Positions 5,083 through 51,466 are shown, counted from the first letter of the stretch. The stretch: 59,694 nt of DNA from Patescibacteria group bacterium (GCA_034660175.1 JAYEIQ010000020.1:1-59694); one strand, 5' to 3'. Numbers and translations are program-made. Notes: generated from the letters alone by a model not told the origin.

Positions 5083-6588
5083 TTGAAAAACAAAGGTAAA
5101 AAAATCTTAGCAGTATTTTTAGGATTGGCGATGTTATCGACAGTTTTTGTTGTGCCAGGTGGTTATTTTGTGAAAAATGTGGATGCTGCTACTGGAGATG
5201 CTGAGTCTGGTGATTCTGATTTTGAAAAATATTTGAAATATGACAAGTTCAAAAAGGATGATCGCAGAAGCAAATATCGGAAATATAAAAAAGCCAAGGA
5301 TAAATATGGCTTTGATTCATCAGCTGATAAGTTTGCTGCTAAGCTCTGTTATTATAAAATAAAAGAAATGAAAAAGATCGGGGTACCCAGTGCAGTGCGT
5401 AAACTTGATTCTTGTTATGAGGATTACAAAGATTACAAAAATTACAAAAAAAAATACAGACGACCATATAAAAAATACAAGAAATATAAAAAGTACAATA
5501 AGGAGGAATATGACCAAGATGGAAGATATGACCGCTATGATGAGCCTTCTTATGAAGCAGCCTATAAAAGATACAGGCGGACTCAGGGAAATAATCAAGC
5601 AACTTTGGGTGGTGGTTCATTGGGACCGAGCATTAGTGTTGGATTACATGCGATGATTGACGAGCAAATTGAAGATGATTCGTTTAGAATTAGAGCTTTC
5701 GATCCAGACAATGATGATAATCCTGATAATGATGATGCGTTGCCCTTTGACATTAAAGACAGGAACGGTGATCTTGTAGCCAGTGTTGCTGAAGGTGAAC
5801 AGGCTCGTGTGAAATATATAAGCAACAATGAGTTTGTTTTGTATCATTTTGATGGAACAACAGAACATAACAGCACAACAACTGTTTCAAGGCAGATAAA
5901 TTTTGAACCACAAAGTGCAGACGAGGACGATATATGGTTTGAGATTTATCATTCTTCGTATGGGAGCTCATATGACAAGTTCAGAGATAAAGTCAGACTG
6001 AATTATTATGATCCTTCGGGAAGTGGCAATGATAGAACCTGGATCATTAATATTTTGCCACTAGAGCATTATGTTTGGGGAATGGGAGAGATCACTGGAA
6101 CTGGTGATATGGACTATAATCGCACTATGACAATTTCCTATAGAACATATGGTTATTGGAAGATGAAATATAGTACTGCCTATGCAGCTCATGGCTTCAA
6201 AGTTAATGCAACACCTGGGAATCAGATCTACCGAGGATATGTTTGGGAAACAACTTATGACAGGATCAGGCTTGCAGCAGAAGACACAAGAGGAAAAATT
6301 GTTATTTATGATGGGAGAATAGCAATTACTCCTTACAGCTCATGGACTGATGGTCGAACGCGTAGTTTTGAAGATCGTTGGGGATCAACAAATTATCCTT
6401 GGTGTCAATCGGTGAGTGATCCTTGGGGCGAGCATCCAACAAAAAGTACGAGGCAGCTTGTTTCTGATGGTAATCATATGGTGGGGCTTTCTGCTCACGG
6501 AGCTCTTGATCGAGCTGATGCTGGTTGGAGCTATACACGTATTCTGGAGTATTATTATGATGGAATAGACATTTATACTGCATATTAG
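5083..6588 (+). CDS. SpoIID/LytB-domain exported protein with Lys/Tyr-rich N-terminal region
   Basis: IN.LPLEHYV.G..E, QIYRG, YPW..SVSDP, GNHMVGLS..GA, GWSY..IL.YYY motifs. Confidence 0.85.
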   Translation: MKNKGKKILAVFLGLAMLSTVFVVPGGYFVKNVDAATGDAESGDSDFEKYLKYDKFKKDDRRSKYRKYKKAKDKYGFDSSADKFAAKLCYYKIKEMKKIGVPSAVRKLDSCYEDYKDYKNYKKKYRRPYKKYKKYKKYNKEEYDQDGRYDRYDEPSYEAAYKRYRRTQGNNQATLGGGSLGPSISVGLHAMIDEQIEDDSFRIRAFDPDNDDNPDNDDALPFDIKDRNGDLVASVAEGEQARVKYISNNEFVLYHFDGTTEHNSTTTVSRQINFEPQSADEDDIWFEIYHSSYGSSYDKFRDKVRLNYYDPSGSGNDRTWIINILPLEHYVWGMGEITGTGDMDYNRTMTISYRTYGYWKMKYSTAYAAHGFKVNATPGNQIYRGYVWETTYDRIRLAAEDTRGKIVIYDGRIAITPYSSWTDGRTRSFEDRWGSTNYPWCQSVSDPWGEHPTKSTRQLVSDGNHMVGLSAHGALDRADAGWSYTRILEYYYDGIDIYTAY

Positions 6589-6603
6589 TAAAATTAAAAA
6601 GGC

Positions 6604-7131
6604 ATGAAGAGGTTTTTTATCGTAATTGTTATCTTGGCGACAGTTTCTGTGGCTGCATATTATGTTTGGCAAGGGCGTGAAGAGTTTTTATTTCAAGGTG
6701 AAGAGAGCTATGAAGTGAATGAAGAATTTGATGAAGAGGAGAATGGTCTTGACAATCTGGATGATGAAGAGGAAGAATACAAACTTAAAACTGAAGAAGA
6801 AAAAAAGGAAGAAGAAGAGAGAAAATTGGATGATCTGGATGAAGAAGAAATGAGTCTCATCTTAGCTAGTGACTGCGACAACGAATGTGAGGACTGGGAA
6901 GATGACAAAGAAGAATTTGAAATTTGTCAAGAAATTTGTGGGCTCAGGGATGACAGTGATGATTCAAATGATGACTGCGATGACCTTGAGGATATAGAAG
7001 CGGATATATGTTATCGTCGCAAAGCGATAGATGAAAAAGACTTTTCTATTTGCAAAAAAATTGATGATGACAGCTTGAGGAAAAACTGTGAGAACAGGGT
7101 GACAGAAGAAATTTTAGATGACCAAAATTAA
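6604..7131 (+). CDS. Acidic Cys-repeat membrane-anchored protein
   Basis: N-terminal TM, D/E-rich linker, C-terminal CY...A....D...C..I......C module. Confidence 0.7.
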   Translation: MKRFFIVIVILATVSVAAYYVWQGREEFLFQGEESYEVNEEFDEEENGLDNLDDEEEEYKLKTEEEKKEEEERKLDDLDEEEMSLILASDCDNECEDWEDDKEEFEICQEICGLRDDSDDSNDDCDDLEDIEADICYRRKAIDEKDFSICKKIDDDSLRKNCENRVTEEILDDQN

Positions 7132-7158
7132 TAGAAATATTTAATTTCAAGAAAAACA

Positions 7159-7737
7159 ATGAAAAAAACATTGGAGAATTTGGCCAAAGCGTTTATTAGT
7201 GAGTCACAAGCTCGTAATCGCTACACTATGTTTGCCAAGACGGCCAAAAAAGAGGGATTTGAGCAGATTGCAGCAGTTTTTGAGGAAACTGCAGATCAGG
7301 AAAGAGAGCATGCAAAATGGCTTTTTCGTATGATTTGTGATCTCAATGGGAAGGAAAAAACAGGAGAAATAAAAGTTGAATCAAGAGTTCCTTTTGTTTG
7401 TGGAAGCACGATTGATAATCTAGCAGAGGCAATCAATGGAGAAAATTATGAGCATACCCAGATGTATCCTCAGTTTGCCGAGACAGCAGAGGAAGAGGGG
7501 TTGACTGATGTCGCTGCACGTTTACGTTCAATCGCGATTGCAGAAACTCATCATGAAGAGCGATATAAGAAACTCAAAGATGTTTTTGAAGAGAGTTCAG
7601 TTTTCAAGAAAAAAGAAGAAAAAGTTTGGATTTGCCGAAAATGTGGATATATGAAAAAGGGGAATGAAGCTCCTAGCATTTGTTCTTCTTGTGGCCATCC
7701 CCAAGGATATTTTCAAACTCAAAATGAGACATACTAA
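7159..7737 (+). CDS. rbr: Rubrerythrin
   Basis: ESQARNRY, EREHA, GENYE..MYP, ETHH diiron ligands; CRKCG and CSSCG rubredoxin domain. Confidence 0.95.
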   Translation: MKKTLENLAKAFISESQARNRYTMFAKTAKKEGFEQIAAVFEETADQEREHAKWLFRMICDLNGKEKTGEIKVESRVPFVCGSTIDNLAEAINGENYEHTQMYPQFAETAEEEGLTDVAARLRSIAIAETHHEERYKKLKDVFEESSVFKKKEEKVWICRKCGYMKKGNEAPSICSSCGHPQGYFQTQNETY

Positions 7738-7753
7738 TATTTAAATTAAAAAA

Positions 7754-8143
7754 ATGGCTAATGTTCAAAATAAAAAAGAGATTTTCAAATGCAGTGTTTG
7801 CGGAAACATTGTTGAGGTTCTCCATGTTGGTGGTGCTGAATTAGTGTGTTGTGGCCAGTCGATGGACTTTCAAGCAGAGAAAACTCAGGATGAAGGGAGC
7901 GAAAAACATATTCCAGTAATTGAAAAAACTGAAAACGGATTCAAAGTGACAGTTGGTTCGGTGGAACATCCAATGGAGCAAGATCACCATATCGAATGGA
8001 TAGAATTGATTGTAGATGGAAATTTTTACGCAAGAAAATTTTTATCTGTGGGGAAATCTCCACAAGCAGAATTTGACTATTCTGGAGACGGTAAAGTTGG
8101 AGCGAGGGAATATTGCAATCTCCATGGGCTTTGGAAGGCGTGA
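7754..8143 (+). CDS. dfx: Desulfoferrodoxin (superoxide reductase)
   Basis: CSVCGN...CCGQ desulforedoxin domain; EKHIP, HPM...[14 protein letters not shown]. Confidence 0.95.
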
Positions 8144-8177
8144 ACTAGTCTAAGCATATAAAACTCAATAACAAAAA

Positions 8178-13546: not shown

Positions 13547-13571
13547 TTTTGTTTCTGTATATTCCATGATG

Positions 13572-13966
13572 TGGAGGTGATGGGAGTTGAACCCATGTCC
13601 AGTCTTGGATCAAATAAATCTTCTACAAGCGTAGCTTATTTGTTTGTTTTGACACCAAAAAGACTTAAAATAAGCAAAATGTCCTTAAGTGTTCTTTCTG
13701 GAAGTGCGCTATTGTCAAATGGCAGAAAGCACCAAAAGACATGAGCTCGATGACGACGTTGGGATCAATTTATCGAGCATCGATTGGCCAACGGGCTGGA
13801 GCCGTTAGGCTACAGCAGCAGCAAATTGAGGAGCAAATGCTTGCGCAAGAGCTCTTTTTGCTTTTGTAATAATGTTTGCACTTAAAACTTTGCCACAGTT
13901 TCACAAGATGTGACGGCTTGACTTGCGGATTTAAAAGAGCACAATCTGTCGAATCCTAGCACCCCC
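13572..13966 (-). ncRNA. ssrA: tmRNA
   Basis: 5' GGGGGTGCTAGGATTCGAC; 3' GGACATGGGTTCAACTCCCATCACCTCCA with G3-U70; tag ORF 13879..13805 ANIITKAKRALAQAFAPQFAAAVA*; adjacent to smpB. Confidence 0.96.
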
Positions 13967-21262: not shown

Positions 21263-21336
21263 GGGCGATTAGCTCAGCTGGTTAGAGCGCAACACTGATA
21301 ATGTTGAGGTCCCAGGTTCAAGTCCTGGATCGCCCA
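21263..21336 (+). tRNA. tRNA-Ile(GAT)
   Basis: Cloverleaf GGGCGAT...ATCGCCC-A; anticodon GAT 21297-21299; TTCAA T-loop; CCA not encoded. Confidence 0.97.
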
Positions 21337-21370
21337 CAGAGAAATGATTACAAAAATATAGCAATGAAAT

Positions 21371-21443
21371 GGGCCCTTAGCTCAGTTGGTAGAGCGCCTC
21401 GTTTGCACCGAGGAGGTCAGGAGTTCGAATCCCCTAGGGTCCA
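21371..21443 (+). tRNA. tRNA-Ala(TGC)
   Basis: GGGCCCT...AGGGTCC-A with G3-U70; anticodon TGC 21404-21406; one A-C mismatch in the T stem. Confidence 0.96.
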
Positions 21444-21562
21444 CAGAAAATAATTTACAAATTTTAATTTGAAATTTTCAATGAGCTTTCAATATTTGAA
21501 TTTCAAATGATAAAAAAGTTTTTTTGATTTGTCCAATGGCGAGTTTTTTATTGCAAAAAGAC

Positions 21563-39566: not shown

Positions 39567-40200
39567 TTTTTATTTTATTTTTCTTCAACTTTTCTATTTT
39601 ATTACCACTTACAAAGAACTTCTCGAGAAGCTTCTTTTTGATTGCAGTTATATAAACAAAAACGAGCAGAGCAACAGCAAAAATAGCCCAACCCGCAAAT
39701 TTAATATAGCGATCTATTTGTTCAGCTGCAAAACCAAAAAAATAGCCCAAACCAACCAGTATTCCACTCCACACAACACCACCAAGCAAAGAATAAACAA
39801 GAAATTTTTGAAAAGGCATTCGAACAGTTCCTGCTAAGATGAAAGCAATCCAACAAAGTCCCGTTGTCGACTTTACATAGAAAACAATTTTTGCTCCGCT
39901 TTTATCAAATCGTTTTTCAAGTCTCTCAATCATTTCTTGTCCCACGCCCAACATTTTTTGTGATTTATCTGCAACTCGTTTTCCTCCGAAAAAACCAATG
40001 GCATACAAAATCACATCTCCTAAAATATCACCTGTTACACTCAAAACAAAAACAACGACCCAACTGAAAATTCCCAAGGAAGCAAGAAACGCTGCCAGCA
40101 TTGTTACTATCGGACCTTCCACAATCATCAAAAGCAACATAATGGGATATCCCCAACTAGGAAGTGACCTTGAAAGCTCTTCCACTGAGAATTCGAACAT
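39559..40200 (-). CDS. DedA family membrane protein
   Basis: VEGP, GD..GD..LYAIG..GG, AG..RMPF..F, VW.....LGY.FG. Confidence 0.9.
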   Translation of the reverse strand: MFEFSVEELSRSLPSWGYPIMLLLMIVEGPIVTMLAAFLASLGIFSWVVVFVLSVTGDILGDVILYAIGFFGGKRVADKSQKMLGVGQEMIERLEKRFDKSGAKIVFYVKSTTGLCWIAFILAGTVRMPFQKFLVYSLLGGVVWSGILVGLGYFFGFAAEQIDRYIKFAGWAIFAVALLVFVYITAIKKKLLEKFFVSGNKIEKLKKNKIKNE

Positions 40201-40355
40201 GAATAACTTTTAAGAAAAGTATGCTTTAATTATAAAAGGTTTCAACGTTGCTAGCAAGTTTTAAGACTGCTCATTTTCCGTGTCTGATACTTATTTTGTT
40301 TGCACCAAAAAAAAACGTGTGTTACACTTAACGTATAAAACAAAAACAAAATGAA

Positions 40356-40685
40356 ATGAGTACTACAAAAAGAAGACAGTCAAATTCAAAAAAGTCTTCG
40401 CATATCAAAGACATATTGTTGCAAGTTGGGGGAGTTTTTTTTCACAACCTTTTTGATCAAGTTAAAGAGGGAGTGAAAGTTAAACTTAATAAATTCCTGC
40501 AGAATGTGAAACGGGTTGCGACAGTTACATTTCTTGTTGTTGTTGGTGTTCTGTTTCTTTTTGTTGGTATGGCAAACTTAATTGATAGTGCACTGGGAAT
40601 TAAAGGATCAGGTTTTTTGTTTATTGGAATCGCTTTGACTTTGATGGGATATTTAATACACATGTTGGGAAAAAGTTCTAAATAA
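40356..40685 (+). CDS. Two-TM protein (YqjE/holin-superfamily-III-like)
   Basis: Amphipathic N-terminus, two TMs, basic C-terminus; adjacent to ElaB/YqjD-like gene. Confidence 0.5.
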   Translation: MSTTKRRQSNSKKSSHIKDILLQVGGVFFHNLFDQVKEGVKVKLNKFLQNVKRVATVTFLVVVGVLFLFVGMANLIDSALGIKGSGFLFIGIALTLMGYLIHMLGKSSK

Positions 40686-40722
40686 TTTATAAAGGAGAAT
40701 AACAATTAAACGCTAAAAGAAA

Positions 40723-40995
40723 ATGAACAAGATTACGGCAAAAAGAAAAGTGGCTCAAGCTAAAAGAAAAGCAAAAAACGTTGCTTCAAAAGCTGAAAAA
40801 AATGTTGAGCAGACAAGAAAGCAGGCAGAGAAAGAGGTTGCAAAAATTAAAAAAGAAATGGACAAAAGCATCAAAAAAGTTGAATCTTTTGTCAAGAAAA
40901 ACCCAGAAAAAGCAGCGTTGATCTCTGCTGGAATCGGCACAGCACTCGGAGCAAGCTTGGCAGTGTTTATGAAAGCAAAGAAAAAGAGAAAATAA
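40723..40995 (+). CDS. ElaB/YqjD/DUF883-like tail-anchored protein
   Basis: Lys/Ala-rich helix, then FVKKNP..AALISAGIG..LG and a basic tail. Confidence 0.7.
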   Translation: MNKITAKRKVAQAKRKAKNVASKAEKNVEQTRKQAEKEVAKIKKEMDKSIKKVESFVKKNPEKAALISAGIGTALGASLAVFMKAKKKRK

Positions 40996-41019
40996 CAAAC
41001 TTTACAGCAAGTCACACCG

Positions 41020-41053
41020 AGACACTTCAAGCTTATTTCGAAGTGTCTTTTTT
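41020..41053 (+). terminator. Intrinsic terminator
   Basis: AGACACTTC...GAAGTGTCT followed by T run. Confidence 0.65.
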
Positions 41054-41272
41054 GCACCAAAAACACCGATTTAAAGCAGTTTTTTATTGGTGATGTTCAG
41101 CATTGACATAAATCTTTCATAAGTGCTATCATTAAAGACAGAAAAGATAGTGTTTTACCCACAAAAAACATAAAAAAATAACAAGAAGGGGATTGATAAA
41201 TGTCATGAAGAAATGACATTATATTTTTGTGATAAAACCTTTTTGAGATAATTTATTTAAACAAAAAAATTC

Positions 41273-41956
41273 ATGAGCGATTTTGTTAAATTTGCAGTTG
41301 ATCAAGGCGTTCCAATTGAAACGGTCACATTGATCCTTATGCTGCCAATAGTTGTAACTATAATTGCTTTTTTTCGTCAGATCGTTGGAATAAAGGCTTT
41401 TGGAATTTACACGCCAACTTTGGTGACTTTTGCTTTTTTTGGAATCGGTATTGACGCCGACAGTTTTTTAAAAGGAATGAAATATGGAATTTCAATTTTC
41501 GTCACTGTAATTGCCATTGGCACACTTACCAGAATTATCCTTAAACGTCTTCGCCTCCTATATCTTCCTCGAGTTGCAATTGTGATCACCATCGTTTCTT
41601 TTTCAACACTAATGATTTTGATTCTTGGAGGTGCTCTTCAAAGAACTGGTCTTGCTAGTGTATCAATTTTCCCAATCTTGATTATGGTTGCATTAGTTGA
41701 AAAATTTGTTTCAACTCAAATAGAAAAAGGGGCACGTACTGCGGTCATCCTATCTGTAGAAACTCTCATTATCTCCCTGGTTTGCTATACAGTTGTTAGT
41801 TGGAGAGAGTTGGTAGGTTTTGTCCAACAATATCCATGGATTATTTTGATAATACTTTTGATAAACTTTGCTCTTGGCAAATGGACAGGTTTGCGTATCA
41901 GTGAATATATTCGTTTTAAACACGTCATCAAAAATGCTGAACATCCTAAAAAATAG
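41273..41956 (+). CDS. 7TM protein of the type usually fused to an inactive transglutaminase (stand-alone here)
   Basis: ILMLP...IAFFRQIVG.KAFG.Y.P, LLYLPR, FPILIM...VEKF, G.WTGLR..EY.RF. Confidence 0.85.
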   Translation: MSDFVKFAVDQGVPIETVTLILMLPIVVTIIAFFRQIVGIKAFGIYTPTLVTFAFFGIGIDADSFLKGMKYGISIFVTVIAIGTLTRIILKRLRLLYLPRVAIVITIVSFSTLMILILGGALQRTGLASVSIFPILIMVALVEKFVSTQIEKGARTAVILSVETLIISLVCYTVVSWRELVGFVQQYPWIILIILLINFALGKWTGLRISEYIRFKHVIKNAEHPKK

Positions 41957-43334
41957 CGAGGAGATTTTGGGCATGAACGCTCGAAACTTGAAATATATCA
42001 GACCATACAATCTTTCTGGCTCTAAACGTCTTGCTGACGACAAGCTTTATAGCAAGGAAGTTATGAAAAAGGCTGGATTACCAGTTCCTAAACTGATAAC
42101 AAGAATCAGATCCAGAAATGAGTTGGACGATTTTGATTTTGGAAGTTTGCCAAATAGTTTCGTTCTCAAGCCAAACTTTGGATTTGGCGGTGAAGGTATT
42201 TTGGTTGTTTATGGGAGAAGAAAAGACCAGGACAATGTATGGGTCAAAGCAGACAGAAAAATCATTACAGAAAATGATCTCAAAACACAAATTGGTAACA
42301 TTCTTGACGGTTCTTTCTCACGAACCAACACACCAGATATTGCTTTCTTCGAAGAACGTATCATGCTCAGCAAGGATTTCAAGCCATATACATACAAAGG
42401 CATTCCCGACATTCGCGTAATTGTATTCAATAGAGTGCCTGTAATGGCCATGTTACGAATTCCAACAGAGCTCTCCGGTGGAACATCAAATATGCATATG
42501 GGTGGAATCGGAGTTGGGATTGACATGGCAACTGGAGTTACGACGAGCGCCATTCAATTTGATCGATCGGTTGAATATGTTCCGAACAAGAGACTTCTAT
42601 TGAGTGGAGTAAAAATTCCTTACTGGGATGATATTCTCAATTATGCTGTCAAAGCTCAAGATGTTTCTGGGCTTGGATATCTCGGAGCTGACATCGCCAT
42701 TGATCGTGAACGTGGACCTGTTTTCATGGAACTGAATGCAAGGCCAGGTCTCTCGATTCAAAATGCAAATGAAGAAGGGTTGCTTGGACGATTAAGGAGA
42801 GTCGAGGGACTAAAAGTGAAAACAATTAAAAGAGCAATTGCTCTTGCACAAAATCTATTCGGCGGAGAAATTGAAGGGGAAATTGAAGATATGTCTGGAA
42901 AAAAGATAATAAGAACCATTGAGAAAATAAAACTCACCGGAAAAAATGGCAAAGAACTTGAAATAGAAGCAAAGATCGATACTGGGGCGCACTCAACTTC
43001 AATAGACAAAGATGTTGCGATCAAGTTAGGATTCTCTGATGTAATTGACTATTTTGACAAAATTGAAAAACCAAAAGACATCACAAGAAAAACAGGAAGA
43101 ACAATAAAGAAGGAAATAAGAAAAAAATATCTTGAAAAACATCGTGATTTGCAAGATATCGGCATTATCTATTCTCCAAGTGGTGCTACAATCCGACCTA
43201 AAATAATCCTGAATTACGTGATGGATAGAAGAAAAGTTGTCTCAAGAGCAAACATCGTTCGTAGAACAGATCTCAAATATCCAATGATCATTGGAAGAAG
43301 GGACCTCAAAAGATTTATGGTAGAAATTCAATAG
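41934..43334 (+). CDS. Alpha-L-glutamate-ligase-like ATP-grasp protein fused to a retropepsin-like (RimB-type) protease
   Basis: ILGMNARN..YI..YN, DDKL, FVLKP..G.GGEGI, PDIRVI, AMLR.PT, ELNARPGL.IQ.AN; C-terminal AKIDTGA.STSID and R....YPMIIGRR.L. Confidence 0.88.
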   Translation: MLNILKNSEEILGMNARNLKYIRPYNLSGSKRLADDKLYSKEVMKKAGLPVPKLITRIRSRNELDDFDFGSLPNSFVLKPNFGFGGEGILVVYGRRKDQDNVWVKADRKIITENDLKTQIGNILDGSFSRTNTPDIAFFEERIMLSKDFKPYTYKGIPDIRVIVFNRVPVMAMLRIPTELSGGTSNMHMGGIGVGIDMATGVTTSAIQFDRSVEYVPNKRLLLSGVKIPYWDDILNYAVKAQDVSGLGYLGADIAIDRERGPVFMELNARPGLSIQNANEEGLLGRLRRVEGLKVKTIKRAIALAQNLFGGEIEGEIEDMSGKKIIRTIEKIKLTGKNGKELEIEAKIDTGAHSTSIDKDVAIKLGFSDVIDYFDKIEKPKDITRKTGRTIKKEIRKKYLEKHRDLQDIGIIYSPSGATIRPKIILNYVMDRRKVVSRANIVRRTDLKYPMIIGRRDLKRFMVEIQ

Positions 43335-43339
43335 AAACA

Positions 43340-44272
43340 ATGACAAAAATTGTTCTGATCTTATTTTCCAAGCAATATATTGACAAAAACAAAAAAAGTC
43401 AAAAGCTAAAAAAAGGCTTTGAAAGCCTGTATATTTTTGCCAAAAAAAGAGGAATATGTTTTTGTAAGGCACCAATCTCCTGCTTTAATAAAAAAGAGGA
43501 AAGTTTTGATAAAGCCGAATTTTTTGAAAGTGGCCACTGGATACAAAAGCCAGACATAGTTCCGAATGTTATTTATGACAAAACGCCGTTCCATATTTGT
43601 GAAAAACTTAAAGAGGATCGAAGAAAAATATCACGAATTTTCACCTTTATAAACGATTTGGCTCTAAGCGAATTGATGAGTGATAAGTGGCTAACATACC
43701 AAAAATTCAAGATATATTCACCTAAAACTGTTTTAATCGAAAAGGGTGACGATCTGGGAAAAATAAAAAGCTTAGACTGTGAAAAAATAATTTTAAAACC
43801 GCTCTCTGGTTCTGGAGGAAGTGGAATAGAAATTGTAGATCATGAAAAAATTTCCAATAAACAATTTCCATACATAGCCCAAGAGCTTATAACAACAAAC
43901 ACGGGTATCAAGGGGATAGTTGATGGTCCTCATGATCTGCGTGTAATTATCAAAGATGACAAATTGATATATTCATATGTGAGAATTCCATCCAGAGGGA
44001 GACTACTGGCAAATCTTTCACAGGGAGCAAAGATCAAAGTGATTGATATCGAAAATTTACCGACGCAGATCCCAGAAATAGCATCACATATTTCAAAAAA
44101 ACTTGAAAATTTTCACCACAAACTTTATTCCATTGATTTTGCCTTCGACAAAAAAAACAAACCATGGATAATTGAAATGAACTCCAGGCCGGGGATTACT
44201 CTTGAAAAAGATGAAGGGGAAAAAGGAAGAATTCTCTGGGACAATTTAATTGAAATGTTTAAAAGTTGTTAA
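43340..44272 (+). CDS. ATP-grasp ligase (RimK/YheC-D-like)
   Basis: DKW, ILKP..GSGG.GI, AQELI, HDLRV, ANLSQG, SIDF, IIEMNSRPG. Confidence 0.85.
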   Translation: MTKIVLILFSKQYIDKNKKSQKLKKGFESLYIFAKKRGICFCKAPISCFNKKEESFDKAEFFESGHWIQKPDIVPNVIYDKTPFHICEKLKEDRRKISRIFTFINDLALSELMSDKWLTYQKFKIYSPKTVLIEKGDDLGKIKSLDCEKIILKPLSGSGGSGIEIVDHEKISNKQFPYIAQELITTNTGIKGIVDGPHDLRVIIKDDKLIYSYVRIPSRGRLLANLSQGAKIKVIDIENLPTQIPEIASHISKKLENFHHKLYSIDFAFDKKNKPWIIEMNSRPGITLEKDEGEKGRILWDNLIEMFKSC

Positions 44273-44279
44273 ATCGTAT

Positions 44280-45254
44280 ATGAAAAAAGTATTAATTTTG
44301 TTTGGAAGATCGAATTGGAAGAAAAGTAAACCCTTTGGCAACAAAAAATATTTATATTCTTATGAATATTTCTACGAACTGTGTAAGAAGCAGGGAATGC
44401 AGATATACAGGGCTTCATATCAGTGGTACAACCATGATAATAAAAAGTTTGATAATGCCTGGACTTTTGAAGGGAAAAACAAACAATGGAAAAGAGTAAG
44501 TGACATCAAGCCGGATCTGATTTTTGATAAAACAAAGGCCACGCCGGAAGCCTATTACGAAAAAGAAAAGATCGCTAAAGAGTATAGTTTTTTAAATGAT
44601 CTACATTTCACAAAGCTCATAGACAACAAGTTATATACAGGATTACTGTTTCCAAAATGGTCTAAGGGTAATTTATTAACAAAGAACGTGCGAGAGCTTG
44701 AAATTGCACTGGAAAATATTAAGTCTGAAACAGTAGTGCTAAAGCCACTCGAGGAAAGCGGAGGAAGAGGGATCATCATTGACAAAAAGGATGAGATTCT
44801 AAGACTAACAAAGAAAAATAATTTTGTTTTCACTCCATATATTGTTCAAGAGTTTATTAACACATCAGCAGGAATCCCTGCAGTTATGAAAGGAGTTCAT
44901 GATCTACGACTGGTTTTCATAAACGACATGTTGGTTTATTCTTATTATAGACAACCAGCAAAAGAGAAACTACTTGCCAATCTTGTTCAGGGTGGGAGAA
45001 TGGAAATTGTTTCTTTAGAGAAGCTTCCAAGAGAGCTGGATCCGATTATTAGTTTCACTCATAATATTTTTTCTCCATTTCCTTCCAAGATCTTTACTGT
45101 CGATATTATGTTTGATGAAATGCAAAAACCATGGATTGTCGAACTTAATTCAATGCCGGGGATGTATTTTGAGCCTGGACAAGAAAAAATAAGAAGGCAT
45201 TTTTATCAAAAATTACTTGAGGTAATCAGAAATGAATGTGTCAATCAGATATAA
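44280..45254 (+). CDS. ATP-grasp ligase, paralogue of the preceding gene
   Basis: NK, VLKP..ESGGRGI, VQEFI, HDLRL, ANLVQGG, TVDI, IVELNSMPG. Confidence 0.85.
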   Translation: MKKVLILFGRSNWKKSKPFGNKKYLYSYEYFYELCKKQGMQIYRASYQWYNHDNKKFDNAWTFEGKNKQWKRVSDIKPDLIFDKTKATPEAYYEKEKIAKEYSFLNDLHFTKLIDNKLYTGLLFPKWSKGNLLTKNVRELEIALENIKSETVVLKPLEESGGRGIIIDKKDEILRLTKKNNFVFTPYIVQEFINTSAGIPAVMKGVHDLRLVFINDMLVYSYYRQPAKEKLLANLVQGGRMEIVSLEKLPRELDPIISFTHNIFSPFPSKIFTVDIMFDEMQKPWIVELNSMPGMYFEPGQEKIRRHFYQKLLEVIRNECVNQI

Positions 45255-45274
45255 CAGGTAATCATTTAACAACA

Positions 45275-46756
45275 ATGCAAGAAATGAACACAAAAATAGG
45301 ATCTGTCACAGATGTCAAAAGATCGATTGGTAATAATGATTATAAAATTTTTGGAATTGGCGGCACACCAATAACACGTGCGGAAATCTATTCTCTCATC
45401 GATGATTTTGAATTGATCTGTACAGTTCCTTCTGGCGATCTTGCATGTGTTCAGAAAAAGCTCAGAGTCACTTGTTTTGAAATGAGAAATGAGAAGGGTT
45501 TTTATGTGAAAAAGCCAGACAAAATACTTGCCAATCCCAAGGTCGTTGAACATATCAAGGAAAGGTCAAAAAATAAAAAAGTTGGTATCTTACTCATGAA
45601 GCCTACAAAAAAGGCTACGGAAATTTGTGAGAGAAATGGTTGGACCTTACTTGGAAATAAAGATGAAATTGTCAAAAAATACAACAATAAAAATGAGTTT
45701 CAAGAACTACTCAAAAAAATTAATGTTCCTACGAATGCAATCTCCGTTAATCTAACTGAACTTCCAAAAGAGCTTAACAGTGCATTCGAGAAACTGGGCA
45801 ATGATATAGTTATTCAATTACCAGAAAGTTGTGGGGGCAGGGGAACTTTTTTCTTTAACAAAAAACAGCAAGAAGAAATTCCAACCTTGATCAAAAAAAG
45901 AGTGAAAACTTTAAACGAAGATGTTCCTGATGATTCCAGAGTTGTTATTAATAGTTTTTTCGAAGGACCATCCCTTAGCTCGCTTGGTTGTGTCACGAAA
46001 GAGAACGGAACTATTTCTTGTGATCCACAGTATCAATTGATAGGTATAGAGAAGGTCACTTGTGGTAAAACTGATGCAACGGGGGTTTTTTGCGGGAATG
46101 ACTGGGTTCTTTCAAACGATATTCCTAATAATATAAAAGAGCAATCTCAAGAAATTACTGAAAAAATTGGCAATAAACTTAAAGAAAATGAAGTTTTTGG
46201 CATTTTCGGAGTTGATTATATTTGGGATAAAAAGAGAGATGTTTTGGTTCCAAATGAGATAAACGTTCGAATAACTGGGGCTTTTCCAACAATAGTTTTT
46301 TCTCAATTGGAAGCTGGCACGGTGCCACTGATTGCGTTTCACGTACTGGACTTTTTGGATATCTCATACTCTCTTAAAGATTCCGAAATTTATAATAACA
46401 GAAAACGGAAAAAAGGAGCTCATTTGATCTTGTTCAATCCCAAAAGACACGATGTCGTTTGTGGTAATGAGATCTCTGGTGGTGTCTATTCTCTCGACAA
46501 AGAAAAGCATGTAAAATTTGAGCGTCTGGGATTCGAGTTTAACGATATAAAAAATCCCAAGGAATTTATCATAACAGATGGGATTCCAAGCAAAGGAGTT
46601 GTGCGAAAAAAAAATAAGAAAATCGTCAAAATAATAACCAAGGAAACAATCTGTAAAAGTCCTCAAAAATTGAACAGATGGGGAAATGAAATTGTTACCG
46701 CAACATACGAAGCTCTTGATTTAAAAAAAAAGAAAGAAAGACTGGAAATAATTTAA
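45275..46756 (+). CDS. Divergent ATP-grasp ligase with C-terminal accessory domain
   Basis: NNK, IVIQ...SCGGRGTFF, FCGNDW, GIFGVDY, EINVR.TG; start may be 45236. Confidence 0.78.
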   Translation: MQEMNTKIGSVTDVKRSIGNNDYKIFGIGGTPITRAEIYSLIDDFELICTVPSGDLACVQKKLRVTCFEMRNEKGFYVKKPDKILANPKVVEHIKERSKNKKVGILLMKPTKKATEICERNGWTLLGNKDEIVKKYNNKNEFQELLKKINVPTNAISVNLTELPKELNSAFEKLGNDIVIQLPESCGGRGTFFFNKKQQEEIPTLIKKRVKTLNEDVPDDSRVVINSFFEGPSLSSLGCVTKENGTISCDPQYQLIGIEKVTCGKTDATGVFCGNDWVLSNDIPNNIKEQSQEITEKIGNKLKENEVFGIFGVDYIWDKKRDVLVPNEINVRITGAFPTIVFSQLEAGTVPLIAFHVLDFLDISYSLKDSEIYNNRKRKKGAHLILFNPKRHDVVCGNEISGGVYSLDKEKHVKFERLGFEFNDIKNPKEFIITDGIPSKGVVRKKNKKIVKIITKETICKSPQKLNRWGNEIVTATYEALDLKKKKERLEII

Positions 46757-46942
46757 ACCGGAACAGGAGAACAAAGACACCAGAAATAACAGCCGAGAGC
46801 TTGGATGAGACAAAAAGAGTGGTTATTACAATAAACAATAAATAAAATAACGGAGGTGTTAAAAGTAGTTTTATTTAAAACATTAATTCTATCAATTGGA
46901 CTCGCTATTTTGGCGAAAATAATTTTGTATAATAAATATTCC

Positions 46943-49576
46943 ATGAAAAAGGATTCAAAAACTGGAAAAGTTATAAAATTGAATAAAAACAGAGATGGAT
47001 TGAAATCTCAAAAACCAAAAAAATACCGCAAGACAAAAATTGCACTTTTTTTGTTTGGAATGCTTGTTTTAACAGGTATCGTGGCAATTGGAAGTCTCTT
47101 TGCTTTCTATGCAAAAGATCTACCAAATCCAGAACGAGTCAATCGTCGTGTCGTTGCAGAATCAACCAAAATCTATGATCGAACAGGTGAAAAGCTTCTC
47201 TATGAAATTCATGGGGAAGAGAAAAGAACAATCATTCCTATGAAAGAAATTCCTGATGCGGCAAAATATGCAACAATTGTACTTGAAGATGATATTTTCT
47301 ATGCTCACAGTGGCTTCGATATTGGAGGACTCATTAAGGCTGTTTGCCACGAAGCCTCTTCTGCGGCTGGAATGGGTGATCTTGGTGGTCTTTGCCCTCA
47401 ACGTGGTGGATCAACGATCACTCAACAATTTATTAAAAATTCAATTTTAACCTCTGAGAGAAGCTATTCTAGAAAGATTAAGGAAATCATTTTGGCAATA
47501 GAAATAGAACAAAAATTTGAAAAGGATGAAATTCTGAGAATGTACTTGAATGAAATTCCATATGGATCAAACGCCTATGGAATTGAAGCTGCTGCACAAA
47601 CATTTTTCGGCAAACATGCAAAAGAACTAACACTTGCTCAAGCAGCAATGTTGGCTACACTGCCAAATGCACCAACATACTATTCGCCTCACGGTACGCA
47701 CACAGACAGACTGCTAGCAAGATGGTCTCACACCATTGATCAAATGGCTAATCTGGGATACATAACGGATCAACAAGCCGAAGATGCAAAAAATGAAGAC
47801 ATTTTGTCTCAAGTTAAATCACTTGTAGATGATATTGATGCTCCACATTTTGTTCTCTATGTAAAAGAAAAACTTGTTGAAGAATTTGGAGGAGATGAGA
47901 TTAAAAGCGAAGGACTAAAAGTGGTGACTACACTTGACTGGAACTTGCAACAACTGGCAGAGAAAACCGTCCGAGAAGGTGTTGAAGAAAATGGTGAGCG
48001 TTATAATTTTGAAAATGCAGCCTTAGTTGCAACCAATCCTCGAAATGGCCAGGTTCTTGCTATGGTTGGTTCTCGAGACTACTTTGATGAAGAAATTGAC
48101 GGAAATGTTAATGTTGCAACAAGACTCAGACAACCAGGCTCATCTTTCAAGCCATATGTATATGCACAAGCTTTCCGTGAAGGATATACACCAAAAACAA
48201 CACTTTTTGATGTTAAGACTGAGTTTTCTCAAATAGCTCAGAATGAATACAAACCACAAAACTATGATGGCAAATTCAGAGGACCAGTACAGATGGAAGA
48301 TGCCCTGGGCATGTCTTTAAACATTCCAGCAGTAAAGGCGCTCTACCTTGCAGGAGTCAAAGACTCAATCAGACTTGCCAAGTCAATGGGAATTACAGAT
48401 CTCAATCAACCTGAGAGATATGGCCTTTCTTTGGTTCTTGGTGGGGGAGAAGTTAAACTTCTTGATCATGTCGGTGCATTCGGAGTCTTTGCGAATGAGG
48501 GAGTTAAACATGATCAAAGAGTGATCTTGAAAATTGAAGACTCAAAAGGTGAGGAACTGAAAAACTATGAAGACTCAAAAGGCAAACGTGTTCTTGAAAA
48601 AGAAGTTGCCCTTGAAATGTGTGAAATTCTTTCAAACAACAAATTTCGAGCGCCTACTTTTGGGACAGCAAATCCACTAAATATCTCAGGAAGACACGTG
48701 ATTGCAAAGACAGGAACAACAAACGAATATCGCGATGGTTGGTTAGTTGGATCTTCGAAGTCACTTGCTGCAGGTGTCTGGACAGGAAACAATGACAATA
48801 GGGAAATGGCAGTTGGTGCTGCAGGAGCAAACGTTGCTGGTCCAATCTGGAACACTTTCATGAAAGAAGCGCTCAGTAATCATCAAGATGAAAAGTTTGA
48901 GGATCCAAAAAAGCGAGAGAAGAGTGACAAAAAGATCATCGATGGTGGTTATAAAGTCGTTGAAAGAATTGATGTTTGCAAATATGACGATGGAAAATAT
49001 TGTCTTTCCAACAAGCATTGTCCCAAGAAAAAGAAAGATGACAAAAAATATTTCACTGGCCATAATATTTTGCACTATGTCGACAAAGAAGATCCATTGG
49101 GGAAGGAACCGAAAAGGCCGAAGGATGACCCTCAATATAAAAATTGGGAAAAGGCAGTTAAAAAGTGGGGCGAAAAACACGCTGATGGCAAAGGAAGAGA
49201 TATTCCTCCAGAAAAAGAATGTGATGAAGATCATTTCTCAAACGATTTCTCTAGTATCAAAATTGCATCGCCAGGGAATGATGATACGATAGATAATGAC
49301 AAAATCACTATCAAAACAGACATTTCTGGTGTTGCTGAAGTTAGACAAGTAGATTTCTTTTTTGATGGTGAAAACATTGGATCAAGAAGCAGACCTCCTT
49401 TTGAAATTGACTACAGAATACCTTCTAGCAAAAACAACAAAATAGTGGCTATCCGTGTCAAACTCTATGACGAAGAGGACGGAAACGATGAAGATAAGAT
49501 CAGTGTGAAAATAGATATACATGATGGATTTTTCAGTTTGTGGAACTACTTCAAGACTCAAAAAACTATAGTGTAG
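46943..49576 (+). CDS. Class A penicillin-binding protein (PBP1A family) with C-terminal Ig-like domain
   Basis: ED..FY.H.G, GGSTITQQ, RKIKE; S.FK (PGSSFKP), SLN, KTGT. Confidence 0.94.
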   Translation: MKKDSKTGKVIKLNKNRDGLKSQKPKKYRKTKIALFLFGMLVLTGIVAIGSLFAFYAKDLPNPERVNRRVVAESTKIYDRTGEKLLYEIHGEEKRTIIPMKEIPDAAKYATIVLEDDIFYAHSGFDIGGLIKAVCHEASSAAGMGDLGGLCPQRGGSTITQQFIKNSILTSERSYSRKIKEIILAIEIEQKFEKDEILRMYLNEIPYGSNAYGIEAAAQTFFGKHAKELTLAQAAMLATLPNAPTYYSPHGTHTDRLLARWSHTIDQMANLGYITDQQAEDAKNEDILSQVKSLVDDIDAPHFVLYVKEKLVEEFGGDEIKSEGLKVVTTLDWNLQQLAEKTVREGVEENGERYNFENAALVATNPRNGQVLAMVGSRDYFDEEIDGNVNVATRLRQPGSSFKPYVYAQAFREGYTPKTTLFDVKTEFSQIAQNEYKPQNYDGKFRGPVQMEDALGMSLNIPAVKALYLAGVKDSIRLAKSMGITDLNQPERYGLSLVLGGGEVKLLDHVGAFGVFANEGVKHDQRVILKIEDSKGEELKNYEDSKGKRVLEKEVALEMCEILSNNKFRAPTFGTANPLNISGRHVIAKTGTTNEYRDGWLVGSSKSLAAGVWTGNNDNREMAVGAAGANVAGPIWNTFMKEALSNHQDEKFEDPKKREKSDKKIIDGGYKVVERIDVCKYDDGKYCLSNKHCPKKKKDDKKYFTGHNILHYVDKEDPLGKEPKRPKDDPQYKNWEKAVKKWGEKHADGKGRDIPPEKECDEDHFSNDFSSIKIASPGNDDTIDNDKITIKTDISGVAEVRQVDFFFDGENIGSRSRPPFEIDYRIPSSKNNKIVAIRVKLYDEEDGNDEDKISVKIDIHDGFFSLWNYFKTQKTIV

Positions 49577-49668
49577 CAATACATTGTTTTTTGCTCAAAA
49601 TGTATGGGAATTTTTATTTTCGTGCATTTTTTATTTTTTAAAATGAGGCAGATAATATCTTTCAAATC

Positions 49669-49731
49669 TTGACAATCAGCACGGTTTCGTTAGAATGAAG
49701 AACGTTAGCAAACAAACAATGTGAATGCTAA
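49669..49731 (+). promoter_or_regulatory. Sigma70 promoter and CIRCE operator for groEL
   Basis: TTGACA 49669-74, TAGAAT 49691-96; TTAGCAAAC-N9-GAATGCTAA 49705-49731. Confidence 0.8.
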
Positions 49732-49771
49732 ATCGTATTTACAAATGCCATAATCATTAAATTACTTATAA

Positions 49772-51466
<1,695 letters not shown>

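Follow-up and report, generated by a model that had tools for sequence, protein, structure and literature searches.

Contig JAYEIQ010000020.1 of a Patescibacteria group bacterium (GCA_034660175.1), analyzed over its whole length of 59,694 nt and referred to as the window, harbors between positions 41273 and 46756 five same-strand genes (g1 to g5), which code for a seven-transmembrane-helix (7TM) protein, an ATP-grasp ligase fused to a retropepsin-like protease and three further ATP-grasp ligases. Comparison with related genomes revealed that the first two genes, g1 and g2, form a conserved pair, while the ligases behind them belong to a cassette that changes rapidly between relatives. Complex prediction suggests that the ATP-grasp domain of g2 docks on the cytoplasmic face of g1. 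We propose, with belief and doubt about evenly balanced, that g1 and g2 would act as a membrane-docked enzyme, which builds and trims a non-ribosomal, probably acidic peptide, and that the cassette ligases would vary the make-up of this peptide from lineage to lineage.

The host genome comprises 0.98 Mb in 23 contigs and is 93% complete; the window is its contig C20. A first-pass annotation, made by a model from the window's sequence, had described five tightly packed or overlapping genes on the same strand. ORF calling recovered all five, with neighbors separated or overlapping by no more than 30 nt, and comparison with sequence families and structure models confirmed the domain type given for each of them. 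The genes and the flanking penicillin-binding protein gene are as follows.

41273–41956, plus strand: g1, stand-alone 7TM_transglut membrane protein (PF14402) of 227 aa, similar to the 7TM part of RloB but without its outer domain
41934–43334, plus strand: g2, RloC-type ATP-grasp (about 41958–42863) followed by a retropepsin-like domain (about 42918–43331); 466 aa from the likely start ATG 41934
42978–42989, plus strand: DTGA active-site motif of the g2 retropepsin domain (residues 349–352), invariant in 58/58 sequences and aligned to RloA structures
43340–44272, plus strand: g3, RimK/YheCD-like ATP-grasp with an N-terminal pre-ATP-grasp domain; cassette gene
44280–45254, plus strand: g4, paralogue of g3; cassette gene; alternative start TTG 44250
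45284–46756, plus strand: g5, divergent ATP-grasp of the biotin-carboxylase/L-amino-acid-ligase fold; cassette gene; longest ORF from 45236
46856–49576, plus strand: PBP1A, flanking backbone gene that closes the variable slot (membership of the system not shown); likely start ATG 46943; TIGR02074 E 3.7e-150

Conservation of the g1-g2 pair and turnover of the cassette

g2 is present in 61/61 genomes of the order, the host genome counted, which represent 12 families and 40 genera. Full-length matches within the order were 53–68% identical, and three matches were cut by contig ends. g1 was likewise found in all 61 genomes, always directly upstream of g2. The pair extends beyond the order: among 401 sampled genomes of the phylum, 127 carried g2 at E≤1e-10, and of 40 further neighborhoods from other families 39 contained g2, with g1 directly upstream in 38 of these 39.

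The neighborhoods of 60 relatives and the window itself (61 sources, 60 of which hold g2) were subjected to ORF calling and clustering. Loci with g2 and a downstream PBP1A gene were considered complete (n = 50); the remainder mostly ends at a contig edge. Between g2 and PBP1A the complete loci carry one to eight genes (median 3), 148/150 of them on the same strand, in 43 distinct gene orders. Additional ATP-grasp genes directly follow the 7TM/ligase pair in each of the 50 loci, so that the lack of synteny in relatives, which the first-pass annotation had named as refuting its proposal, did not arise. One such gene is present in 18 loci; 11 loci have two, 20 have three and a single locus has five. 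The three extra ligases described for the window are present, but as one cassette state among 43 rather than as a fixed design.

At least six ATP-grasp families contribute to the cassettes: the g3/g4 type, RimK with Rimk_N (130.1 bits, cut-off 143.4), RimK with a long C-terminal extension, a type related to the G domain of cyanophycin synthetase (295.1 bits), a LysX/RimK-like type and the g5 type. Cassettes also hold a Mur ligase resembling the M domain of cyanophycin synthetase, MATCAP/QEGLA peptidases, a GT4 glycosyltransferase, a YdjC deacetylase, GNAT and methyltransferase genes and two families without a Pfam match. A cyanophycin synthetase gene of almost full length lies directly after g2 in a different lineage of the phylum (locus L083 of genome G126, 5601–8159, plus strand).

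Turnover of the cassette is fast. Not one of 13 locus pairs with g2 proteins 80–90% identical shared the same cassette order, and the mean Jaccard index of these pairs was 0.25. On a quick g2 tree, calculated with SH-aLRT support only, g5 occurs in 8/19 rows of the clade of the window's family and needs seven gains or losses; for the g3/g4 type, present in 25 rows, 17 changes are required. Altogether g5 was found in 9/61 genomes, namely the host genome, seven family-mates in which it lies beside g2, and one genome with weak matches only (23–26% identity). A tandem of g3 and g4 is also seen behind g2 in three genomes belonging to three families (G007, G054 and G041).

Domain assignment of g1 and g2

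g1 matched the Pfam family 7TM_transglut (PF14402) with an E value of 8.1e-31. The NCBIfam RloB model aligned only over positions 306–508 of 508 (95.5 bits, cut-off 900), which indicates that the transglutaminase part is absent from g1, as the first-pass annotation had claimed. The structure model of g1 (pLDDT 85.8) consists of seven long helices, and an alignment of 58 sequences displayed 38 invariant columns. In the window's order g1 is a bare 7TM protein; in many other lineages it is preceded by a PKD domain and about 170 extra residues. PKD matches were obtained for 7/10 scanned long or intermediate forms of g1 and transglutaminase matches for 0/10. Stand-alone 7TM forms of about 200–224 aa occur in Pseudomonadota too. 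Minisyncoccota are the most frequent source of the Atlas cluster closest to g1, which makes the first-pass view of a reduced genome reasonable. When the g1 model was compared with the PDB by Foldseek, nothing matched at E≤0.001; Nqr/Rnf membrane subunits came closest, at E 0.79. With VIA-align wide, the highest Z scores were 9.9 for the helical part of Cas10d and 8–8.8 for Rnf/Nqr subunits, which lies below the level that is meaningful for helical bundles with this tool.

The g2 reading frame overlaps g1 by 23 nt when ATG 41934 is taken as start. The protein matched the Pfam family ATPgrasp_ST (E 6.2e-67) and the alpha-L-glutamate-ligase-like model TIGR02291, the latter with 286.1 bits over positions 10–314 of 317 (cut-off 314.2). 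The score against the RimK family model TIGR00768 was 44.6 bits (cut-off 143.4). Residues 329–464 showed a weak match to RloA retropepsin models (E 5.1e-5), and a profile of 58 g2 sequences matched the RloA crystal structures 9g58 (1.8e-6) and 9g59 (1.8e-5) with the DTGA motifs aligned. Besides D349, T350, G351 and A352 of this motif, residues K79, D253, E266, N268 and R270 are invariant in all 58 aligned sequences. These matches agree with the earlier description of g2 as an alpha-L-glutamate-ligase-like ATP-grasp with a C-terminal DTGA retropepsin-like domain. The N-terminus (MLNILKNSEEILGMNARN...) exhibits no hydrophobic signal segment, as judged by reading the sequence and with no signal-peptide predictor run. 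In other lineages, g2 variants carry the retropepsin domain, a C-terminal MATCAP peptidase or both. Sequence searches of the PDB performed with g2, g3 and g5 individually gave weak matches only (best E 0.0012 to 0.018), and RimK-type matches in the host genome are confined to g2, g3 and g4.

Predicted docking of g2 on g1

Prediction of a complex between g2 and g1 resulted in a score of 0.63, compared with 0.00 for the best of three controls. In a calibration, this mark was reached by 116/157 solved complexes and by 2/215 mismatched pairs; since our own alignments were supplied for the prediction, these counts apply only roughly. Three prediction runs agreed in at least 90% of contacts, with a partner pLDDT of at least 78. 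A search of the PDB found no chain matching g1 at E≤1 and no RloC-type chain matching g2. As no similar complex has been solved in the PDB, it is unlikely that the predictor merely reproduced a known structure.

On the side of g1, the contacts comprise residues 36, 39, 152–156 and 202–222, all of which would lie on the cytoplasmic side according to our reading of the helix layout of the model and the positive-inside rule. They include the invariant residues G202, W204, G206, R208, E211, R214 and F215. Overall, invariant residues account for 9/22 contact positions and for 29/205 positions elsewhere (Fisher one-sided p = 0.004). On the side of g2, the contacts are formed by the N-terminal residues 4–20 and by residues 273–282, which adjoin the invariant E266-x-N268-x-R270 site; the protease domain lies outside the predicted interface. 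The ATP-grasp domain of g2 is thus predicted to dock on the cytoplasmic face of g1. The first-pass proposal of a membrane-anchored pathway gains support from this controlled prediction, which is a matter of model confidence only.

The additional ligases g3, g4 and g5

According to Pfam and NCBIfam models, g3 and g4 are RimK/YheCD/GshB-like ATP-grasps. g3 matched YheCD (2.1e-14) and RimK (4.2e-9), and g4 matched RimK (4.9e-10) and the tubulin-tyrosine-ligase family TTL (8.5e-9). Against the RimK family model, they reached 45.6 and 41.5 bits, respectively (cut-off 143.4). The two proteins are 35% identical to each other (E 5.0e-51), and their designation as paralogous RimK/YheCD-like ligases was appropriate. 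g2, g3 and g4 have the motifs K-P...GG.GI, D...D and E-x-N-xx-PG in common, which we take to be the ATP/Mg sites.

The fourth ATP-grasp, g5, had been called divergent, and the searches bear this out. Other gene calls place its start at M17, corresponding to position 45284 and a protein of 490 aa. Pfam ATP-grasp models gave weak matches only. NCBIfam PRK06524 ("biotin carboxylase") matched over the full length with 125.5 bits (cut-off 684), and 10/10 sampled members of the g5 family matched the same model with 60.9–194.2 bits, far under the cut-off. The structure model is confident (pLDDT 91.4, pTM 0.90), and Foldseek retrieved biotin carboxylase, PurK, PurD, BacD/YwfE and BesA at TM 0.47–0.58 and 12–15% identity. 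Judged from this model, g5 is an ATP-grasp of carboxylase/L-amino-acid-ligase shape that belongs to no characterized clade.

A function of g5 as a working biotin carboxylase was considered and ruled out. Apart from the low PRK06524 score, no Biotin_lipoyl domain was found in the 93%-complete host genome, while 14/14 control genomes contained a match; g5 therefore cannot serve as a working carboxylase of this kind here, the biotinyl-carrier domain being missing. Nor do g3, g4 and g5 fall into the housekeeping clades that the first-pass annotation had named as possible homes (Ddl, GshB and PurD). Their best scores were 40.4 bits for GshB (cut-off 272), 19.9 for Ddl (cut-off 243) and 21.1 for PurK (cut-off 318.4), and none reached the cut-off for PurD or biotin carboxylase. 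A separate Ddl match exists elsewhere in the genome (G000:C22:33999-34457, minus strand). It spans model positions 53–203 only and contains one TAG, so that this gene may be split, broken or affected by an assembly error.

A word-indexed search yielded 21 relatives of g5. In a profile search of 1.84 billion representatives, 2292 relatives were found at E≤0.001 and 459 at E≤1e-30, mostly of full length. Eleven long sequences of the g5 family were scanned for fused domains. The g5-like domain is combined with ATPgrasp_ST and retropepsin in P0064, with retropepsin in P0065, with MATCAP in P0036, with RimK in P0086 and P0087 and with GNAT in P0034. Two more distant members have other fusion partners, namely an NlpC/P60 cell-wall peptidase domain in P0162 and a PLP enzyme in P0165. 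These natural fusions tie the family of g5 to g2-type ligases, retropepsins and MATCAP.

Comparison with known systems

The three-gene module of aspartic protease, transglutaminase-7TM protein and ATP-grasp, to which the first-pass annotation had compared the window, is now named RloABC, and the comparison with it and with RimK/RimB holds. The hetero-oligopeptide on a protein, lipid or cell-wall acceptor, which had been added to it, can still only be inferred. RloABC is encoded by an operon of Pseudomonas aeruginosa, and its product is unknown (Lormand 2025, mBio, PMC12239564). As described there, RloA cuts sequences rich in glutamate, and the protease mutants are rescued when rloB or rloC is lost. 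The Rlo proteases are secreted in Pseudomonas, 96% of RloB matches are reported from Proteobacteria, and osmotic tolerance, sensitivity to antibiotics, the formation of biofilms and cell shape all depend on the system (Lormand 2025, PMC12239564).

Both systems combine a 7TM_transglut protein, a TIGR02291-like ATP-grasp and a DTGA retropepsin of the RloA/RimB type in one operon; g1 and g2 overlap in the window and are adjacent in 61/61 genomes. The resemblance of g2 to RloC, a cytoplasmic ATP-grasp of the TIGR02291 family, is borderline, its score lying just under the TIGR02291 cut-off. The window's form differs from RloABC in several respects. The outer, inactive transglutaminase domain of RloB is absent. 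RloA is a separate protein secreted with a signal peptide, whereas the protease encoded here is fused to the C-terminus of the ligase, lacks a signal peptide and would thus be cytoplasmic. In addition, a variable cassette of further ligases follows, and the host is a reduced-genome organism of the Patescibacteria type. The window's form appears to work like an Rlo system without being a plain RloABC member, and we regard it as a stripped-down relative.

The RimK/RimB system provides a second parallel, an ATP-grasp glutamate ligase working together with a retropepsin-like endopeptidase. In Little 2025 (J Biol Chem, PMC11957791), RimK is reported to make poly-alpha-L-glutamate, and RimB to cut poly-glutamate and also to stimulate RimK, being needed for efficient synthesis. 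A RimBK hybrid, a natural ligase-protease fusion, is described as proteolytically active (Little 2025, PMC11957791). In RimBK, however, the protease is N-terminal and the ligase belongs to the RimK family, whereas g2 has the reversed order, ligase then protease, and an RloC-type ligase. g2, g3 and g4 all score far under the RimK cut-off. Moreover, RimK works without a membrane partner, and the RimK acceptor motif on ribosomal protein S6 is missing in the host genome, where S6 ends in ...DEILSI. This S6 (L074 1189–1773, minus strand, corresponding to G000:C2) has 194 aa, about twice the usual length, and carries a K/E-rich C-terminal extension of about 100 residues.

Cyanophycin synthetase CphA1 shares the principle that an ATP-grasp domain extends a peptide at its carboxyl end without a template; its side-chain residues come from a second ligase module. 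The window contains no gene of this type, g2 being the only match to TIGR02068 with 16.3 bits (cut-off 850), and the modules are separate small proteins here rather than parts of one multidomain enzyme. Cassette genes of relatives come partly within this family. For g5, BacD/YwfE, BesA and biotin carboxylase offer similarity of fold, but identity is low and the scores stay far below every curated cut-off.

What was already known is the ligase-protease fusion (RimBK, PMC11957791) and the three-family operon (RloABC, PMC12239564). New are the conservation of the pair, the fast-turnover cassette, the fusions and the fold of g5, the predicted g1-g2 docking and the PBP1A control given below. Among the papers listed in literature searches, none described the Patescibacteria form, and Lormand 2025 was the one relevant work on the Rlo genes.

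Proposed mechanism and alternative explanations

The domain identities, the conserved pair, the turnover of the cassette and the gene fusions, together with the predicted interface, form the basis of our model. The ATP-grasp domain of g2 would add amino acids to a carboxyl end by ATP-driven acyl-phosphate chemistry as in RimK, the residue most likely being glutamate or another acidic one. The retropepsin domain, presumably dimeric, would cut within the acidic chain and thereby limit its length or recycle it; by analogy with the effect of RimB on RimK, it may also speed turnover. With the ligase on the cytoplasmic face of g1 and its active-site region against the conserved C-terminal tail of the 7TM protein, the product would be made at the membrane and then either passed outward through g1 or held on it. 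The RimK-like ligases g3 and g4 and the L-amino-acid-ligase-fold protein g5 could add further residues, giving a hetero-oligopeptide that differs between lineages. Substrate, product, any export and the acceptor, be it a free peptide or a protein tail, are what we infer here. In a farther-reaching version, which we think unlikely, g1 and g2 would be a coupled synthase and translocator extruding a template-independent peptide with a sequence set by the cassette ligases, a strain-specific surface "barcode" diversified by gene swapping like O-antigen and capsule loci.

Several points weigh against this model. All chemistry is assigned by analogy, and no product, substrate or acceptor has been observed. 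The scores of g2 under both the TIGR02291 and the RimK cut-offs mean that its glutamate specificity is not established. Invariant residues show no enrichment among the g2 contacts of the predicted interface (3/23, compared with 443 positions elsewhere, of which 77 are invariant). The g1 model has no convincing relative among transporters, and the export step required in Pseudomonas would not be required here, since the protease domain forms part of a cytoplasmic ligase and lacks a signal peptide. The extra ligases are dispensable for the core function, as some members of the phylum, such as those represented by L096 and L106, carry g1 and g2 without any extra ligase. Finally, the g5 family has an invariant glutamine (Q178 in P0001 numbering) at the position where g2, g3 and g4 carry the lysine of the LKP motif, presumably the ATP-binding one; the activity of g5 is putative.

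Instead of a free peptide, the tail of a protein may be the target: the ligases would add amino acids to a C-terminus or a side chain, and the retropepsin, joined by MATCAP in relatives, would remove them. We hold such editing to be possible but doubtful. It has precedents in RimK/RimB acting on ribosomal protein S6 and in tubulin ligases with their carboxypeptidases, and protein tails are known targets of both the retropepsin and the MATCAP family (Little 2025, PMC11957791; Pfam description of PF08014). The tubulin-tyrosine-ligase matches of g3 and g4 (27.1 and 35.5 bits) and the fusion of g2 to MATCAP in other lineages fit as well. Acidic-ended cytoplasmic proteins are encoded in the host genome, for example NusA with ...EEVEEEE (G000:C8:11045-12457) and S16 with ...KKEEEKKE (G000:C8:17416-17946); these are leads only, taken from a raw scan with five matches among 1039 ORFs. 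S6 itself, however, lacks a Glu-Glu end, the locus has no conserved gene that could be a candidate acceptor, and neither docking to a 7TM protein nor a cassette that changes between close relatives would be expected for a housekeeping protein mark. These last two features also bear on an improbable alternative, in which scavenged amino acids would be stored in the cytoplasm as a poly-glutamate-like or cyanophycin-like reserve or osmolyte polymer and released by the system's own peptidases, with g1 as regulator or anchor. Cyanophycin-synthetase-like cassette genes of relatives (cluster c7 matching the ligase domain with 295.1 bits and c18 the Mur-like domain with 171 bits), including the 852-aa protein in L083 at 722.2 bits (cut-off 850), argue for it. 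So do the free poly-glutamate made by RimK plus RimB in vitro as well as in vivo and the osmotic phenotypes of Rlo, as reported in Little 2025 (PMC11957791) and Lormand 2025 (PMC12239564), respectively. Yet the window itself has no cyanophycin-type gene. Nor would a store of this kind account for the 43 different cassette orders among 50 loci, for cassette genes that encode a glycosyltransferase, a deacetylase or an acetyltransferase, or for the invariant docking surface of the 7TM protein.

The neighborhood of PBP1A raised the question of whether the cell wall is involved. The ligases might add side-chain or bridge amino acids to wall precursors, which would then be polymerized by PBP1A; we rate such a peptidoglycan modification as very unlikely. 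PBP1A closes the slot on the same strand in 50/50 complete loci, and its presence behind the operon had been noted in the first-pass annotation. The backbone order is YebC-RuvC-[g1-g2-cassette]-PBP1A, followed by RuvA or DciA-DnaN. In genomes of the same class without g2, PBP1A lies 0.35–7 kb downstream of RuvC on the same strand in 5/5 cases, and outside the order it was inside the fetched neighborhood in only 7/39 loci. Since the RuvC-PBP1A order is inherited, the adjacency carries no weight for a cell-wall role, and we dropped it as a clue. A FemAB gene further downstream in some relatives and the fusion of a g5-like protein to the NlpC/P60 cell-wall peptidase domain in P0162 would accord with a wall function, and altered cell shape and ampicillin sensitivity of Rlo mutants are reported in Lormand 2025 (PMC12239564). 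On the other hand, Pfam and NCBIfam searches found no nucleotide-sugar or Mur-ligase domain in g1 to g5.

The significance of the pair lies in its compactness. A bare 7TM protein and one ligase-protease polypeptide constitute the smallest Rlo-type form so far, fixed throughout an order whose reduced genomes retain few non-essential genes. Its small size suits it to reconstitution, to structure determination and to a search for the product, which nobody knows for Rlo. The swappable cassette amounts to a natural experiment, and comparing products could reveal the assembly rules of a peptide system that uses neither the ribosome nor a non-ribosomal peptide synthetase. If the barcode version were true, the surface peptide of these host-attached ultra-small bacteria would be strain-specific.

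Regulatory sites and further features of the window

The region upstream of g1 contains one candidate promoter.

41103–41132, plus strand: promoter-like site TTGACA-18 nt-TATCAT with TG, upstream of g1; 11/12 consensus positions

By consensus match only, this site shares the top score within positions 40200–50000 with another one at 49669–49696. In the leader between the promoter-like site and g1, a short inverted repeat (ATGTCAT...ATGACAT, 41200–41219, plus strand) was spotted by eye, which could be an operator or a hairpin. Rfam searches gave no match within the operon or next to it. Between g5, which ends at 46756, and the earliest PBP1A start (46856), no terminator-like site was reported, and one weak terminator-like site (46902–46916) lies ahead of the later candidate start at 46943. 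Depending on the start, the spacing between g5 and PBP1A is 99–186 nt.

A small protein with two C-terminal membrane helices is encoded at 40356–40685 (plus strand). Its kin, clusters c14 and c40, are located just upstream of g1 in the window's family (10 loci including the window), and a Pfam scan of one c14 member gave no match. On the other side of the slot, several families of the order (L046, L047, L062, L065, L069 and others) carry a gene of the FemAB family after RuvA, just downstream of PBP1A; the FemAB family includes tRNA-dependent enzymes that build peptidoglycan bridges. Elsewhere in the window, a tRNA-Ile(GAT) and tRNA-Ala(TGC) pair is located at 21263–21444 (plus strand). Such a pair usually resides in the rRNA spacer, and no rRNA match was found anywhere in the window. 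A tmRNA gene is present at 13569–13966 (minus strand).

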